A stretch of 64,000 nucleotides of DNA, taken from contig DMXM01000028.1 of NCBI GenBank assembly GCA_003482905.1, positions 49,703 through 113,702 of the forward strand, given 5' to 3'. The translations under genes were made by a program, and so were the position numbers. How positions within the stretch are numbered: the stretch's first letter is position 1; every line of letters starts with the position of its first letter. Source of the DNA: Elusimicrobiota bacterium. Lineage in GTDB: Bacteria; Elusimicrobiota; Elusimicrobia; Elusimicrobiales; UBA9959. This document shows, in pieces, positions 7,695-32,940 of the stretch. Below the pieces are notes generated by a model, which made no database searches, had not been told where the DNA came from, and saw only the letters and a program-made list of their open reading frames with translations.

Positions 7695-9017
7695 TTATTT
7701 CCCCGGCTTCAGGTTGCCCAGCACTTCGCGGGCCTTCAGCAGCTCTACGGCGCGCTCCAGCACGTCGTCGGCCACGGCGTCGCTCTTCTTGCCGGCCTTG
7801 TCGTCCTTCACGGTCTTCTCATCCTTGGCGTCCTTACCCGGCTTTACGTCCTTGCCCGGGAAATAAAGTTCTTCGCCCTGCTGCAGCAGCTTCTTTTCGG
7901 TTTCCAGCGACACCTTCACGGCTATGTCCGGGGTTATACCGCCGGTCTCGTTCTTGGCGTCGTGCTGTATGGACTTGCCGTTAGGCGTGTAATACTTGGC
8001 TATGGTCAGGCGCAGGGCGGATTTGTCGGAGAGCGGGATCATGCTCTGTACGCTGGCCTTGCCGAAGGAGCGCTCCCCTATGATCACGGCGCGCTTATTG
8101 TCCTGCATGGCGCCCGCCACGATCTCGCTGGCGGAGGCGGAATAGCGGTTCATCAGGATCACCAGCGGCAGCCGCTCGTACGCCGCCGAGCCGCCGGCGC
8201 GGAATTCCTGGTAGTTCTCCGGTTTGCGGCCCTTGGTGTAAACTATCATCTTATCGCCGTTCATGAACACCTTGGAGATGTCCACGGCCGCCGAGAGCAG
8301 GCCGCCGGGATTATAACGCAGGTCCAGCACCAGAGCTTCCATCCCCTTGCCCTTCAGTTCGGCCATGGCCTTGTCGAAATTCTCGGTGACGTGCCCTGTG
8401 AACTCCACGATCTTTATGTAGCCGGTCTTGGCGTCCAACATGCGCCATTTGACGTTCTCGCTCTTTATCAGCTCGCGCGTGATGGTGATATCCCTGGTGA
8501 TCCACTCGGCGTTCTTGTCCTCGGCCTCCCTGGCGGTGGTGATCTTCACCTGCGTGCCGGGTTTGCCGCGCAGTTTCTTTATAGCCTCGTCGATGATGAG
8601 GTCCTTGGTGGACTCGCCCTCGATCTTTATTATCTTGTCCCCGGGCAGCATCTGCGCTCTCCAGGCGGGCGTATTAGGCAGCGGCGTTACCACGGTAAGC
8701 CAGCCGTCCTTGGTGTCCACCCTTATTCCTATGCCGCCGAACTCCCCCTCGGTGTCGCTCTTGACCCGGTCGTAGACGTCCGGCTCCATGAACTGCGAGA
8801 AATCGTCCAGCTCCTCCACCATGCCCTTGGCGGCGCCGTAAACCAGCTTCTGCGGGTCTATCTGCTCCACGTAATTGTCTTTTATCAGCTCCAGCACGTC
8901 CACTATCACCTTCAGCTGCTGGTAGGTCTGGTCCAGGGCGAAGTTGACATAGGGGAATACCGCGCCTATGAACAGGGCCGACAGGGTGACCAGCACTATT
9001 TTGCGTGCGTTCTTCAT
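7695..9017 (-). CDS. S41 carboxy-terminal processing peptidase (Ctp/Prc family) with PDZ domain
   Basis: PDZ-like GGIGIRV...PGDKIIKIEG, LVLDLRYNPGG, catalytic-region SASASEIVAGAMQD. N-terminal membrane anchor. SD AAGGAG lies 7 nt upstream. Confidence 0.85.
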   Translation of the reverse strand: MKNARKIVLVTLSALFIGAVFPYVNFALDQTYQQLKVIVDVLELIKDNYVEQIDPQKLVYGAAKGMVEELDDFSQFMEPDVYDRVKSDTEGEFGGIGIRVDTKDGWLTVVTPLPNTPAWRAQMLPGDKIIKIEGESTKDLIIDEAIKKLRGKPGTQVKITTAREAEDKNAEWITRDITITRELIKSENVKWRMLDAKTGYIKIVEFTGHVTENFDKAMAELKGKGMEALVLDLRYNPGGLLSAAVDISKVFMNGDKMIVYTKGRKPENYQEFRAGGSAAYERLPLVILMNRYSASASEIVAGAMQDNKRAVIIGERSFGKASVQSMIPLSDKSALRLTIAKYYTPNGKSIQHDAKNETGGITPDIAVKVSLETEKKLLQQGEELYFPGKDVKPGKDAKDEKTVKDDKAGKKSDAVADDVLERAVELLKAREVLGNLKPGK

Positions 9018-9106
9018 GGAAAACTCCTTAAAAACCCCGTAAAACGATAAAACCGGCGGCGGCAGCCGTAAGCGCCCGCCGTCACACTATTTATAAAGAA
9101 TTATAT

Positions 9107-10261
9107 CTAATTTCGGAGCCACTTTACGGGGTCAAGGGCCCTGTCGCCCTTACGTATCTCGAAATAGACGGCGCTGCCGGCCGAGCGCCGGCCGGAACTG
9201 ACGGCCTGGGTATCTTCCCCGGCCAGTCCCAGCTGGGCGGCGGCGCCCACAGCCTGCCCTTTGGCCACGTCTATGCGGCTGAGGAGGCCGTAGATGGTGA
9301 AAAATCCTTTTTCATGGTCGACTATCACCACGTTGCCGTAGGTGCGGAAAGGCCCGGCATATATGATCTTCCCGTCCAGGGCGGCGGTTACGGGGGCGTC
9401 GGTCTCGGTGGCTATGCGTATGCCTTCCCGGACTATCCAGGTTTTAAGCCCCGGCACGTCCTCCCGGCCGAAGCGGCTTATGATCTTGCCGACGGCTGGC
9501 CAAGCCAGGGAGCCGCGCGCTATGGAGAGCTCGCCGGCCACTTCATTACTGCGGTAGGGAGCCTGCTTCTGCAGTTTTTTGACCAGGCGGGTAAGCCCCA
9601 GGGCCGCGTTCTGTAAATTCTCGAGCTCCCGGGCCAGCTTGGCCTGCTGCTCGCGCGCTTTTTCCAGCTCGCCCTGCTTGCTCTTGACCATGCTCTTGCG
9701 GGCCGAACTCTGCTTGCGCAGCAGCTCCTGGCGCGACTTAAGCTCCGCGCCCACGGCCCGCAGCGTGGTGAGGTCCCGGTTGACGCGGACGCTCTCGCCT
9801 TTTATGCGCGTCAGCAGCGCCCGCTTATTGATCATGGCCGAGCGCATCAGCATGTCCTTGGAAATGTCCCGCGTGCCGTAGTACGGGTAATAAAAATCCT
9901 TCTGGAGCGAGAACATCACCAGTTCGCCGGTTATATCCCCGGCCAGCTCCTTTTTAGCTTTCTCGAGCGAATCGTACTTCTGCCTGGCGTCCCCGGAGCG
10001 CGAGCGCGACCTTTCCAGCTGACCTTCCAGTTCCGCCCGGCGGGAGGCGGTCTGTTTTTCCTCTTTTTTAAGGCCGCTTATTTCGGTGACTATGCGTTCT
10101 TCCTCGGCCCGGTAAAGGTCCAATTCCCTTTTCTTATCCTCAAGCTGGCGGTTTATCTCCTCCAGGCTCTTCTTTTGGGGATTGGCGGAGGCCTGCGCCC
10201 CGGCGAGGGCCGGGAGCAGCATAATAAGCGTGAAAATCGTCAGGAGCGGGCGTTTTTCCAT
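9107..10261 (-). CDS. EnvC-like coiled-coil protein with degenerate LytM/M23 domain
   Basis: Signal peptide MEKRPLLTIFTLIMLLPALAGAQA (start moved to ATG 10261). Long coiled coil. The C-terminal M23 fold lacks canonical metal ligands (GIRIATE, VIVDHEKGFFTIYGLLS). Sits between ftsX and ctp. Confidence 0.75.
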   Translation of the reverse strand: MEKRPLLTIFTLIMLLPALAGAQASANPQKKSLEEINRQLEDKKRELDLYRAEEERIVTEISGLKKEEKQTASRRAELEGQLERSRSRSGDARQKYDSLEKAKKELAGDITGELVMFSLQKDFYYPYYGTRDISKDMLMRSAMINKRALLTRIKGESVRVNRDLTTLRAVGAELKSRQELLRKQSSARKSMVKSKQGELEKAREQQAKLARELENLQNAALGLTRLVKKLQKQAPYRSNEVAGELSIARGSLAWPAVGKIISRFGREDVPGLKTWIVREGIRIATETDAPVTAALDGKIIYAGPFRTYGNVVIVDHEKGFFTIYGLLSRIDVAKGQAVGAAAQLGLAGEDTQAVSSGRRSAGSAVYFEIRKGDRALDPVKWLRN

Positions 10262-11037
10262 TGGCAAAGCGTCCAGCCGAGCAGGGCCCCCGACACCGCC
10301 ACGGCCGCCTGCCAGAGCGGGTTGGGCCATACCCAGACGGGGCTCAGGTATTTGACGGGGTAGACCACCGCGTAAGCGGCCAGGGCGCTGGCGGCGGCTC
10401 CCGCGCCGCCGGCCAGGAACCAGATCTTGTCAGCTACGAGCGAAGCGGCCAGCGCCGCCGGGGTATGCCCGTGGGTAAGCACCATGGCCGTCATCACCAT
10501 AAAAGCCAGGAAGGCCAGCGCCAGGCCCAGCGTTATCAAATGCCCGTAAAAAAGGGAATGCATCACCGCGTAAGCCTCCAGCGGCTTGTACTTGATGTCG
10601 CCCACGCCGCTTATGCGCCAGGCGGCGTCGGTCCAGGCGTTCAGGTCGCCCAGTGCCTCCTCGCCTATGGCGACCTCCCAGGTATCCGGCATGGGGTTGG
10701 AGCCGGGGGACAGCACCGAGGCCACAAGCTCCGGTTCCTCGGCCTTCAGCCTGGCCAGGCGTTCCTGCCGGCCCACAAAAACCGCCTGCCGCGTGCCTTT
10801 CAGGGCGGCCAGCGCGGCGCCTATGGCCTCGTCCGTCTCGCGGGACCGCTCGTCGCGCACGACTATAATGCGGAAATCATCTTTGAGCAGCATGGAGATC
10901 TCGCGCATCTGCGCGTGCATAAAAAGGAGGAGCTCGGCCAGCAGCCCGGCCGAAAAAGCCAGCAGAAAGGCCACCCTATACCCCTTGCGGGCTTTTTGGG
11001 CGTGATGGTTGTTCTTGGAATGTCTGTGTTCGTCCAT
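10240..11037 (-). CDS. ftsX: cell-division permease FtsX-like
   Basis: Basic N-tail, TM1, an extracytoplasmic loop (IIVVRDERSRETDEAIGAALAALKGTRQAVFVGRQERLARLKAEEPEL) and 3 C-terminal TMs. Overlaps the EnvC-like gene by 22 nt. Confidence 0.75.
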   Translation of the reverse strand: MDEHRHSKNNHHAQKARKGYRVAFLLAFSAGLLAELLLFMHAQMREISMLLKDDFRIIVVRDERSRETDEAIGAALAALKGTRQAVFVGRQERLARLKAEEPELVASVLSPGSNPMPDTWEVAIGEEALGDLNAWTDAAWRISGVGDIKYKPLEAYAVMHSLFYGHLITLGLALAFLAFMVMTAMVLTHGHTPAALAASLVADKIWFLAGGAGAAASALAAYAVVYPVKYLSPVWVWPNPLWQAAVAVSGALLGWTLCQWKNARS

Positions 11038-11121
11038 AAAACTGAATTATAACTTTTATACGGCGGCAGGTAAATCCGACGGCGGAATTCCGGGGGAATA
11101 TTGCGCTTTTGATAGATATTT

Positions 11122-12000
11122 CTACAGGGAGGCGTCGTGGAATTCTATGGAGGCGACGAACGGCGAGCGGGAGAGCTCGCCTATCATGTCCACCGGCAGG
11201 GTGCCGGTGACGTCGAAGACGCTGAACTTGGAATCGGCGCCTTTCCATGGGCGGCGGAACCAGGTCTCGGCCGCGAAGCCGTGACTGTCGGTAAGGCCTT
11301 TTATGAAACCGGGCACGAATTTATTAGGATGGTTCTGGTAGGGCACTTTCAGGGTGAACCGGACCTTAGTCTTTAAGGGCACGCCGGCGCTTTGTTTCTC
11401 TGTCGCGGCTTTCAGCACGCCCTTCACGCGAGAGATCTTTACCAGGTTGGCCGCCGGGGCCCAGCCCAGCAACACGGTCCTGCGGGAGCTGCGCGAATAA
11501 AAGGTTTTTTCGCCGACGAACCGGAACCCGCCCTCGGCCTCCAGCCTGGCGAGCAGTCTGGCGTAGTCCTTATCCGCCGGCGTGACGCTCATAAAAACGT
11601 ATTCCCTGGCGTACTTTCCGGGAACGCCGCCCAGCGGCCACACGAAAGAACCGACCGGACCGGACTCGCCGGCGAAAGTCACCTTGTAATGGCCGGCCGG
11701 CAGTAAGGGCATCTCCCTTTTAGGGACGGCGGGGGCCGCCTTAACTGCGGGGACGGGGTTCCTCAGGGTGGGCACGGCCGAGATGGGCGCGTCGCGGTAG
11801 CCGCTGAAGTCCGTAACCACCTTCATGGTGTTTTTGGAGTTAAGATAACCGTCCGAAGTTTCTATGAAATCCTGGAAAGCCGGGTCTGAAAATGACCCGC
11901 CCCCGATTATACGGGGATCCACCGGCAGGCTGTCCTGGGCGGCGCAGGGCGCGGCACAACAGGCCGCCGCCAGGAAAGTGATCATCAGGTTTTTTTTCAT
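11122..12000 (-). CDS. hypothetical secreted protein
   Basis: 292-aa ORF with signal peptide MKKNLMITFLAAACCAAPCAAQ. No recognisable domain. Preceded by the structured leader at 12020-12118. Confidence 0.6.
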   Translation of the reverse strand: MKKNLMITFLAAACCAAPCAAQDSLPVDPRIIGGGSFSDPAFQDFIETSDGYLNSKNTMKVVTDFSGYRDAPISAVPTLRNPVPAVKAAPAVPKREMPLLPAGHYKVTFAGESGPVGSFVWPLGGVPGKYAREYVFMSVTPADKDYARLLARLEAEGGFRFVGEKTFYSRSSRRTVLLGWAPAANLVKISRVKGVLKAATEKQSAGVPLKTKVRFTLKVPYQNHPNKFVPGFIKGLTDSHGFAAETWFRRPWKGADSKFSVFDVTGTLPVDMIGELSRSPFVASIEFHDASL

Positions 12001-12019
12001 TGTTATCGTTTATCCACAC

Positions 12020-12118
12020 AAAAAAAGAGAAACGAAATTTACATTCCGTTTCCCCTGGTTACAGCGGGTTAAGGCCCGCCGGTGGATTCTCCCCCGCCTG
12101 ATCGGGGGATTACAAGGG
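12020..12118 (-). promoter_or_regulatory. candidate riboswitch/attenuator: three-way junction followed by an intrinsic terminator
   Basis: Minus strand: P1 CCCUUG/CAGGGG; P2 UCCCCCG-AUCAGG-CGGGGGA; J2/3 GAAUCCAC; P3 CGGCGGG-CCUUAA-CCCGCUG. This is followed by hairpin GAAACGGAA-UGUAAA-UUUCGUUUC plus UCUUUUUUU, ending 20 nt before ATG 12000. Confidence 0.5.
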
Positions 12119-12235
12119 TGCTGCGACGACTACACTACTAGTTTATATTTGTTCAAGAAAGAACAATAGGGGCATAGGACCCAGAGCGCGCGGCAAAAAG
12201 GGCCTACCCGCCCCTGGGCCCTTTGGCCCGGCCGC

Positions 12236-12282
12236 TTGACAGTGACCGCCGGGGCTGTTATAATTTATTTACCGGTAGGTAA
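12236..12282 (+). promoter_or_regulatory. sigma70-type promoter plus palindromic operator candidate for the efflux operon
   Basis: TTGACA (12236-12241), a 17-nt spacer, then TATAAT (12259-12264). Palindrome TTACC-GGTA-GGTAA (12269-12282) lies between the -10 box and ATG 12291, as expected for TetR autoregulation. Confidence 0.6.
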
Positions 12283-12290
12283 GTTTTAAT

Positions 12291-14156
12291 ATGAAAAAAC
12301 GAACAACACCAAAAGAGACCAAAGGCGACAGGACCCGCCAGCGGATATTACAGACCACCACTATTCTGATGGCGGAAAGAGGCCCGGACGCCGTCTCCAT
12401 GCGGGAGATATCGGCTAAACTCAACATTACCAAGCCGGTACTCTATTACTACTTCAAAGATAAGGACGAACTTATAAAGGCCGCTTTCGTCGAGGGGACC
12501 AAGCATATCAAGGAGCTCAACGTCGCCATAGAGGACCCGGGGTTCACGCTGGAGCAGAAATTGGAAAAGATCTTCTCCAACCACCTGGACTTCATAAAAC
12601 GCTATCCCGATATGCCCAAATGCGCGCTGAAGATCATGTCCTCCCCTGAACAGGGCGTGCTGGCCGAAATGGCGAGAGAACTAAAACAACGCAACCGCAA
12701 AACCCTGAAAGCCATGCTGGCGAAAGAGTCCCTTCCCCCCCACGGGGCCGACAATATCCTGCATATGATAAGCGCCGTGATAACCCACTTCATGATAGAG
12801 GCCCGCGAGAACGGCGTGGCCAGCCTGGACAGCAAGCTGCCCGGCCGCCTGGCCCGCCTGATAGTGGCCGGGGCCAAGCACATGAAATCCGTTCTGGCGA
12901 TACTGCTGCTCACCCCCATCCTGGCCGCGGCCGCGCCACAGCCGCTGACCCTGGACGGGGCCGTGAACGCCGCCCTGAAGAACAACGCCTCCGTGGTCAC
13001 CGCGGAAGAAACCCGCCGCATATATAAGGAAAAGGTGCGCGAATACTGGGGCTCCGTGTTCCCCCAGATAGGCGCGGCGCTTCAGTACAGCCGGTATCTG
13101 GACAAACCCAACGCCGACATACTCGGGGCCAAGGACGCGAACATTTATACGGGCTCGCTGGACGTCAACCAGATGCTCTGGGCCGGCGGCAAGGTGAGCA
13201 CCGGCATAAAGATGGCCACCATCTATTCCAACGCCAGCGGCGAGCAGCTCAAGACCGCGCAGAAAGCCGTTGCCCGATCGGTAAAGCAGGTTTATTATTC
13301 GGTGCTGCTGGCCCGCGCCATGGCCGGCGTGCAGAAGGAGTCGCTGGACCTGGCGCGCCAGCACCTGGCCACCATAGAGGCCCAGTACAAACAGGGCATC
13401 GCCAGCGACCTGGCCATGCTGCGGCAGAAGGTGGAGGTCTCCAATACGGAGCCCGCCCTGACGCAGGCGCAGAACCTCTACGAGATAGGCCTCGTAGAGC
13501 TTAAGAACCTTATAGGTCTGGACCCGGAGGCGGAGATAGACCTGACCGACGGCTTCAACTGCGGGCGCCGCGTTCCCGGCGAGATAGGCGGCCTGTACGC
13601 CGCGGCCCTGGCCGCGCGCCCTGACTACCGCAACATGCGCTACCAGCGCGACCTGTACCACGAGATGGTCGGCATAGAACGGGCCGGGCATTTCCCCTAC
13701 CTGAGCGCCTACGCCTCCAGGCAATATTACGGCTCCAGGGAATCCGGCTTCCCCCGGGGTCCGGACCGCACCTGGAGCACCACGGCGGGGGTAAGGCTTT
13801 CGCTGCCCATCTTCGCCGGCGGCGCGGTAAGCTCCCGCACGCGCCAGGCCAGGCTGCAAGAAGGCATTGCCGACACCAACCTGCGCGAACTGGAGCGCAA
13901 GATAAAGATAGACGTAAAGAAGGCCTGGCTCTCGATGAAAGAAGCCTCCGAGCGCCTTGATTCGCAGGGCACGGCGGTGGAACAGGCCCGCAGGGCCCTC
14001 GCCGCCACCGAGGTGCGGTTCCGCAACGGCCTCTCCGGCCAGCTCGACCTCAACGACGCCACCCTGGCGCTGAACCGGGCCCAGACGCTTTACAACCAGG
14101 CCCAGCACGACGCCTGCTCGGCGGACGCGCAGCTGAAATGGGCCCTTGGCGAATAA
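12291..14156 (+). CDS. TetR/AcrR-family regulator (aa 1-197) fused in frame, without a stop codon, to a TolC-like outer-membrane efflux factor (aa 198-621)
   Basis: TetR HTH: RILQTTTILMAERGPDAVSMREISAKLNITKPVLYYYFKDKDEL. From M198 (ATG 12882), MKSVLAILLLTPILAAAAPQPLTLDGAVNAALKNNASV is a signal peptide plus TolC/OEP repeats. MFP and RND genes follow. Confidence 0.75.
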   Translation: MKKRTTPKETKGDRTRQRILQTTTILMAERGPDAVSMREISAKLNITKPVLYYYFKDKDELIKAAFVEGTKHIKELNVAIEDPGFTLEQKLEKIFSNHLDFIKRYPDMPKCALKIMSSPEQGVLAEMARELKQRNRKTLKAMLAKESLPPHGADNILHMISAVITHFMIEARENGVASLDSKLPGRLARLIVAGAKHMKSVLAILLLTPILAAAAPQPLTLDGAVNAALKNNASVVTAEETRRIYKEKVREYWGSVFPQIGAALQYSRYLDKPNADILGAKDANIYTGSLDVNQMLWAGGKVSTGIKMATIYSNASGEQLKTAQKAVARSVKQVYYSVLLARAMAGVQKESLDLARQHLATIEAQYKQGIASDLAMLRQKVEVSNTEPALTQAQNLYEIGLVELKNLIGLDPEAEIDLTDGFNCGRRVPGEIGGLYAAALAARPDYRNMRYQRDLYHEMVGIERAGHFPYLSAYASRQYYGSRESGFPRGPDRTWSTTAGVRLSLPIFAGGAVSSRTRQARLQEGIADTNLRELERKIKIDVKKAWLSMKEASERLDSQGTAVEQARRALAATEVRFRNGLSGQLDLNDATLALNRAQTLYNQAQHDACSADAQLKWALGE

Positions 14157-32865: not shown

Positions 32866-32940
32866 GCGCCCGTATCTCAATGGATAGAGTCCCGCCCTGC
32901 GAAGGCGGTTGTACAGGTTCGACTCCTGTCGGGCGCACCA
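32866..32940 (+). tRNA. tRNA-Arg, anticodon GCG as read, CCA encoded
   Basis: Hand-folded cloverleaf. Acceptor GCGCCCG/CGGGCGC; D-arm TCTC-AATGGATA-GAGT; anticodon arm CCGCC-CTGCGAA-GGCGG; variable TTGT; T-arm ACAGG-TTCGACT-CCTGT; then A-CCA. A20 and C35 fit Arg identity. Confidence 0.85.

Follow-up and report, generated by a model that had tools for sequence, protein, structure and literature searches.

A class II 2′-deoxyguanosine riboswitch that probably switches on the gene of an orphan secreted protein in Elusimicrobia

The window, by which we mean the whole 64,000-nt stretch of DNA analyzed here, carries on its minus strand a gene for a 292-amino-acid (292-aa) protein that is preceded by a structured 5′ leader (Table 1). 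The preliminary description of this DNA had placed the start codon at 12000 and had seen no minus-strand gene upstream, and the ORF list agreed on both points; there is therefore no upstream gene that could use the terminator found in the leader. The aptamer in this leader lies in the sense orientation, with its 3′ end 50 nt upstream of the ATG, and the next gene upstream, that of TetR/TolC, starts at 12291 on the plus strand. When metagenome contigs were searched with the 292-aa protein, 60 loci were found to encode relatives with 37–87% identity. The protein evolves much faster (38–87% identity) than its neighbors (71–95% for CtpA). The gene order, namely, the divergent TetR/TolC gene, the riboswitch with the 292-aa gene, an ftsX-like gene, an M23 (EnvC-like) gene, and ctpA, was strictly conserved (window positions 7695–14156; loci L004–L063).

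Table 1. Positions of the riboswitch, its signature residues (env1 numbering), and other features of the window.
Feature	Position	Strand	Sequence	Remark
2′-dG-II riboswitch aptamer, three-way junction	12050–12120	−		RF03165 match, model positions 1–71
P1	12118–12113 / 12057–12052	−	CCCUUG / CAGGGG	
J1/2	12112–12110	−	UAA	
P2	12109–12103 / 12096–12090	−	UCCCCCG / CGGGGGA	
L2	12102–12097	−	AUCAGG	
J2/3	12089–12082	−	GAAUCCAC	G46 A47 A48 U49 C50 C51 A52 C53
P3	12081–12075 / 12068–12062	−	CGGCGGG / CCCGCUG	One G-U pair
L3	12074–12069	−	CCUUAA	6 nt
J3/1	12061–12058	−	UAAC	4 nt; U75 A76 A77 C78
G21	12113	−		Pairs with C79 and closes P1
U22	12112	−		UCC triad
A24	12110	−		
U49	12086	−		
C50	12085	−		
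C51	12084	−		UCC triad; class-defining change from U51 of guanine riboswitches
A52	12083	−		
U75	12061	−		
A77	12059	−		
C78	12058	−		UCC triad; C74 in xpt numbering; Watson-Crick partner of guanine base
C79	12057	−		
Intrinsic terminator / expression platform	12020–12056	−	Loop GUAA; UUUUU at 12024–12020	14-bp stem, 12056–12043 with 12038–12025; terminator scan and MFE folds
Putative riboswitch promoter	12140–12165	−	TTGTTC, 12165–12160; TAAACT, 12145–12140	−35-like; −10-like
Controlled gene, 292-aa protein	11122–12000	−		ORF
Promoter of ftsX-like gene	11074–11046		TTTACC-17-TATAAT	
TetR/TolC gene	12291–14156	+		Single 621-aa ORF
Sigma-70 promoter	12236–12264	+	TTGACA, 17 nt, TG-TATAAT	12/12 matches; upstream of TetR/TolC ORF
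GC-rich hairpin with T-run	12195–12224	Both	AAAGGGCC ... GGCCCTTT	Conserved
tRNA	32866–32937	+		Second Rfam match in the window

The 621-aa ORF encodes TetR_N and TetR_C domains as well as two domains of outer-membrane efflux proteins (OEP/TolC), and a signal-peptide-like stretch (MKSVLAILLL...) lies between the TetR and OEP parts. Gene callers predict one product from this ORF, which may be either a genuine fusion or a pair of in-frame genes with an internal start. Its perfect sigma-70 promoter diverges from the riboswitch promoter, and the hairpin between the two, which is found in many homologous loci, may act as terminator, insulator, or operator.

The 292-aa protein has a signal peptide, in line with the earlier view of the leader as that of a secreted hypothetical protein gene, together with a conserved motif in its N-terminal part (PFSDPAFQDFIETSDGYLNSKNT...FRDAP), a linker rich in Pro and Ala, and a C-terminal half of approximately 190 aa that is likewise conserved. 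It is identical to a "hypothetical protein [Elusimicrobia bacterium]" and has 115 homologues, of which all named ones come from Elusimicrobia MAGs. No sequence match was found in Pfam, NCBIfam, or PDB, and a profile search of 1.84 billion representative proteins returned only 68 clusters, among which no informative domain fusion was found. The AlphaFold (AF2) models (mean pLDDT 65 over the whole protein and 76 over the C-terminal half; core, 80–92) showed two consecutive beta-alpha-beta-beta-alpha-beta domains of a ferredoxin-like (ACT-like) type, and Foldseek gave only generic tandem ACT-like/ferredoxin-like matches with TM scores of 0.2–0.39. A link to nucleoside or DNA metabolism could not be recognized by the sequence, structure, or profile searches. 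Judged from its sequence, the protein belongs to an orphan secreted family that occurs only in Elusimicrobia.

The whole window was scanned against Rfam 15 at the gathering threshold, which gave two matches: RF03165 ("2dG-II purine riboswitch aptamer") in the leader, with 73.1 bits against a gathering score of 60, and a tRNA unrelated to the riboswitch. A focused scan gave RF03165 with E = 4e-19 over all 71 model positions and as the top family within the purine clan CL00123 at the aptamer. Weak matches near the site to GRIK4 3′ UTR, microRNA, and snoRNA families (E of 0.3–7) were regarded as noise. The MFE fold of a transcript ending at 12050 was exactly the three-way junction (−33.7 kcal/mol), and the fold of the 116-nt leader was better than those of all 200 dinucleotide shuffles (z = −4.2). 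The helices and junctions drawn in the preliminary description were thus reproduced base for base, and its combination of a purine-riboswitch-family three-way junction with an intrinsic terminator was confirmed by the RF03165 match and a terminator scan.

The same aptamer was present 110–270 nt before the gene in all 48 homologue loci whose upstream sequence covered at least 200 nt. As an Rfam test set, we used 20 diverse loci, ten of the 292-aa gene family and ten with other genes; 17 of them reached the gathering score of RF03165 (62–85 bits), and the other three (L040:2724–2795, L056:2832–2903, and L072:6238–6310) scored 56–58 bits with E of about 1e-12. Although these three aptamers have diverged, with either a lengthened L3 or a shortened J3/1, their homology is clear. 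The curated threshold of 60 therefore misses the most divergent members, as standard annotation would. For covariation, 135 distinct aptamers were aligned with MAFFT without reference to structure. Paired cells amounted to 94%, compared with 74% in shuffles, and the observed covariation score was reached by none of 500 shuffles. In a slide control, pairing peaked sharply at register 0 and fell to 36–65% when the partners were shifted by one to three columns. The covariance check proposed in the preliminary description thus supports the fold, with changes on both sides in 16 of the 20 pairs, and together the Rfam E value and the covariation over the 135 homologues place the aptamer fold far above chance. 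UGUAAU, UCCAC, the CC..AA of L3, and C78 were invariant in all 135 aptamers, as were U22 and C51; one G of the GG in L2 was invariant, and the other was conserved in at least 90%.

RF03165 corresponds to the class II 2′-deoxyguanosine (2′-dG-II) riboswitches, a rare class whose ligand is a product of DNA breakdown. This class was reportedly described by Weinberg et al. in 2017 as the "UCC variant group". [quoted passage not shown] The G21–C79 pair contacts the sugar (PMC6847200), C51, U49, and C50 have roles in the ligand site (PMC6847200, PMC12282948), and C47 of env1 contacts the deoxyribose (PMC12282948). The J3/1 of the class has two inserted nucleotides, with U75 pairing with A24 and A77 docking on A52–U22, and its length of 4 nt, compared with 2 nt, separates 2′-dG-II (PMC12282948). 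[quoted passage not shown] Alignment to the RF03165 consensus (ucccccUGUAAuCccggGGAU.uGGCccggGaGuAUCCACggcCcggCCguAAccgGgcGugaCCAggggga, with GuAUCCAC as J2/3) left two departures, namely, A47 (12088) for the C47 of env1 and an L2 one nucleotide below the consensus length. Relative to env1, A47/A48 and A76 stand in place of C47/C48 and C76.

This alignment explains why the earlier reader saw deviations from guanine riboswitches. The oddities listed there, which had been taken to allow an unrelated attenuator, are published hallmarks of 2′-dG-II: C51, the longer 4-nt J3/1, and control of a non-purine gene (PMC6847200, PMC12282948, PMC8872408). The other proposal, a diverged family member with a ligand other than guanine or adenine in the leader of a secreted-protein gene, appears to hold as 2′-dG-II by the class match, but the suggested new ligand and the unrelated attenuator are both unsupported, because the class had already been described and the score lies above its threshold. 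Likewise, the suggested Rfam search did yield a purine-clan match, but with RF03165 and not RF00167 as the best family.

An ordinary guanine or adenine riboswitch (RF00167), misread through a few substitutions, would show the same three-way junction, L2–L3 GG/CC pairing potential, and J1/2 UAA. However, RF00167 was out-competed within the clan; the window has C51 and a 4-nt J3/1 where U51 and a 2-nt J3/1 would be expected, both invariant in the 135 relatives; position 47 is A; and the gene is an orphan secreted gene, with no purine biosynthesis or transport gene associated with 2′-dG-II copies among the matches listed. We therefore regard this reading as exceedingly improbable. The xpt guanine riboswitch of Bacillus subtilis shares P1–P3, J1/2 UAA, an 8-nt J2/3, loop–loop kissing, and the C that pairs with the guanine base. 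By contrast, xpt has U51, U47, and a 2-nt J3/1, its ligand is the free base, and it acts on purine genes as an OFF switch that uses an anti-terminator, whereas the window has a non-purine gene and direct competition between P1 and the terminator. The 2′-dG-I (Mesoplasma florum) and 2′-dG-III (Bacillus) riboswitches are also purine-family aptamers retuned to 2′-deoxyguanosine, and 2′-dG-I resembles the window in having C at the 51-equivalent. However, 2′-dG-I has C at position 22 and a 4-nt L3, 2′-dG-III has U at the 51-equivalent, and both have a 2-nt J3/1 (PMC12282948), in contrast to the U22, 6-nt L3, C51, and 4-nt J3/1 of the window; the genes that they control encode ribonucleotide reductase or nucleoside hydrolase/phosphorylase. 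At the level of sequence, the element is a 2′-dG-II riboswitch, a known and structurally solved class, and every class feature that can be read from a sequence was found except an env1-type C47.

Family members have A, C, or U at position 47, which the Rfam consensus gives in lower case, and the affinity of the env1 C47U/C48U double mutant drops only 3.2-fold (PMC6847200), which indicates that C47 is not a strict class determinant. We infer that the ligand of the window aptamer would be 2′-deoxyguanosine. Because the selectivity for 2′-dG over guanosine ranges from 2.6- to 180-fold among class members (PMC6847200), the physiological ligand of the window subgroup is uncertain. The leaders of the 292-aa gene family form a distinct sequence subtype (A47/A48, J3/1 UAAC, and 6-nt L2) and control an orphan gene, and this subgroup, with fold and family unchanged, may have drifted to another natural ligand, such as guanosine, another guanine nucleoside or deoxynucleoside, or a modified derivative. 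Such a drift is unlikely, given that the contacts with the base and sugar of the ligand, apart from position 47, are invariant in all subtypes, including the ComEC-like copies, that C47,48U, C48A, and C76G have small effects in env1 (PMC6847200), and that the window RNA scores well above the RF03165 threshold.

The hairpin and U-run that follow the aptamer had been recognized in the preliminary description, but the stem was drawn too short; both the scan and the MFE folds extended it to 14 bp (12056–12025). Its 5′ arm starts with AGGGG (12056–12052), five nucleotides that also belong to the 3′ strand of P1, so that P1 and the full terminator are mutually exclusive, an overlap missed earlier. 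The state with P2, P3, and the full terminator was calculated at −42.7 kcal/mol and that with the aptamer and a residual 9-bp hairpin at −41.0 kcal/mol. These states are nearly isoenergetic (a gap of 1.7 kcal/mol), and ligand binding could therefore tip the balance. Alone, the full terminator stem had −15.9 kcal/mol and the residual hairpin, which is left when P1 is formed, −7.3 kcal/mol; the latter is A/U-rich, and CUCU lies between it and the U-run. We scored an overlap when the hairpin before the U-run began at one of the three 5′-most nucleotides of the P1 3′ strand. It is a conserved feature, present in 100 of 149 distinct 2′-dG-II leaders and in 38 of the 45 leaders of the 292-aa gene family. 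An alternative anti-terminator pairing was looked for in the leaders and none was found, P1 being the sole conserved competitor of the terminator base. From this overlap and the missing anti-terminator, we infer an ON switch. The pbuE (ydhL) adenine riboswitch of B. subtilis is a transcriptional ON switch in which the 3′ part of the aptamer is shared with the 5′ arm of the terminator; it differs in ligand and signature (U74), and its terminator invades P1 and P3, whereas that of the window shares only the five P1 nucleotides.

Without ligand, the 3′ arm of the terminator would displace P1, the 14-bp hairpin with its U-run would form, and transcription would stop 20 nt before the start codon. 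With 2′-dG, which by homology to env1 would be bound via U22, C51, and C78, with G21–C79, U49, and C50 around the sugar, P1 would be locked and the terminator would lose its base; only the weak 9-bp A/U-rich hairpin would remain, and the polymerase would read into the gene of the 292-aa secreted protein. Sister copies before ComEC-like genes have no terminator, but the J2/3–P3 segment AUCCACCUCC finds its exact complement in their Shine-Dalgarno region GGAGGUGGAU, an arrangement that predicts ON logic as well and lends independent support. This translational platform, of which L113:6742–6850, L086, L112, and L138 are examples, uses the invariant ligand-binding strand.

The residual hairpin GAAACGGAA/UUUCGUUUC stands directly before a pyrimidine/U-rich tract, and followed by CUCUUUUUUU it might still terminate to some extent. 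This leads to the view of an OFF switch or a constitutive attenuator, in which the short A/U hairpin and UCUUUUUUU terminate regardless of P1, or better with a folded aptamer. This view is highly unlikely in light of several observations: P1 is the only conserved competitor and no anti-terminator pairing was found, the GGGG/CUCU base pairs are kept in 38 of the 45 family leaders, the residual hairpin is much weaker than the full stem, and the Shine-Dalgarno-sequestering platforms of the sister copies predict ON. We consider it highly probable that the element is a class II 2′-dG riboswitch that controls the 292-aa secreted-protein gene as an ON switch by competition between P1 and the terminator. 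Translational control in the window was considered and rejected. GUGGAU (12017–12012), just 3′ of the terminator, is complementary to AUCCAC of J2/3, and the MFE fold of the 116-nt leader contains this pairing, but GUGGA occurs near the start codon in only 7 of 42 family leaders; the pairing is probably incidental in the window, whereas the ComEC-type leaders do use such a design.

Among 43 leaders examined, most of the closer ones carried a block CCCTATTGyTTT...TAgAAT 8–15 nt ahead of P1; in the most divergent, no such block was recognizable. This conserved block points to a transcription start upstream of the aptamer, predicted near 12133, roughly 15 nt before P1. At the other end, a strong GC-rich terminator follows the 292-aa gene in most relatives, and a separate conserved promoter AAAAGTTATAAT serves their ftsX-like gene, so that the riboswitch unit is essentially monocistronic. 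The window keeps the promoter of the ftsX-like gene (Table 1), and no terminator was found after its 292-aa gene (11038–11121). Riboswitch control of the downstream ftsX-like, M23, and ctpA genes was rejected on the basis of the terminator and separate promoter in the relatives, and at most some read-through into these genes is possible in the window.

The 2′-dG-II class has been known from 12 metagenomic examples to which no lineage could be assigned (PMC5473149), and it has been attributed to Bacteroidetes (PMC8872408); in the literature searched, we found no link of these riboswitches to Elusimicrobia. A pattern scan of genomes, with one genome per species, gave at least 117 loci (L064–L180). 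Among the matches listed, at least 91 were titled Elusimicrobia, at least 12 were titled "MAG: bacterium" and had the same leader types, and at least eight were from Balneolaceae. Another six of the matches listed had arisen by chance and lacked the fold (Pontibacter, Fibrimonadales, Anaerolineales, Acidobacteriota, Bacteroides, and Bacteroidales). Thus, a class that was reported in 2017 on the basis of just 12 metagenome reads of unassignable origin is common in Elusimicrobia, which among the matches listed are its main hosts, with several copies per genome.

The genes downstream of the copies, again among the matches listed, encode ComEC C-terminal-like metallo-beta-lactamase (MBL) proteins (17), small secreted proteins of approximately 65 aa (16), 1,100–1,300-aa secreted EEP nucleases of Balneolaceae with LTD, PKD, and T9SS domains (8), DSP-type phosphatases (4), and a triple receiver-domain protein, a GTP cyclohydrolase II, and a papain-like peptidase (one each), as well as further secreted orphan proteins. 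With the sister copies counted, ComEC-like and receiver-domain genes match the known associations of 2′-dG-II (PMC8872408), whereas the 292-aa gene family is not among the named associations, and here the host is assignable as Elusimicrobia. What is new here is the gene association and the host for a known riboswitch class. Most of the regulon encodes secreted proteins or enzymes that act on DNA (ComEC-like MBL proteins, EEP nucleases, and phosphatases), a composition suggestive of a response to the products of DNA breakdown. By analogy with the nuclease genes under sister copies, we would guess that the 292-aa protein has a part in responding to DNA that is extracellular or has been turned over.

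For the element itself little changes, since a standard Rfam scan names it. The gain is a set of conserved platforms that consistently indicate ON logic, a host, a defined regulon, and the testable idea that 2′-dG reports available DNA, and the orphan 292-aa family obtains its first functional handle. A broader reading, which is tentative and, taken as a whole, rather doubtful, joins these observations. The riboswitch and the 292-aa gene would form an ancient fixed unit of Elusimicrobiales, always placed between the TetR/TolC efflux locus and the ftsX-like/M23 (EnvC-like)/ctpA envelope cluster, within a large 2′-dG regulon of up to at least five copies per genome. 2′-dG would signal extracellular or turned-over DNA and switch on a secreted protein with tandem ACT-like domains that represents a new family and may bind DNA breakdown products or link DNA scavenging to envelope remodeling; or else the subgroup would sense a different nucleoside.

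Single MAGs had three to five copies among the matches listed. In the homologue locus L010, two 2′-dG-II riboswitches lie 1.5 kb apart on one contig (L010:1154–1225 and L010:2722–2793); the first precedes the homologue of the 292-aa protein, and the second, of another sequence subtype, precedes a small ORF.
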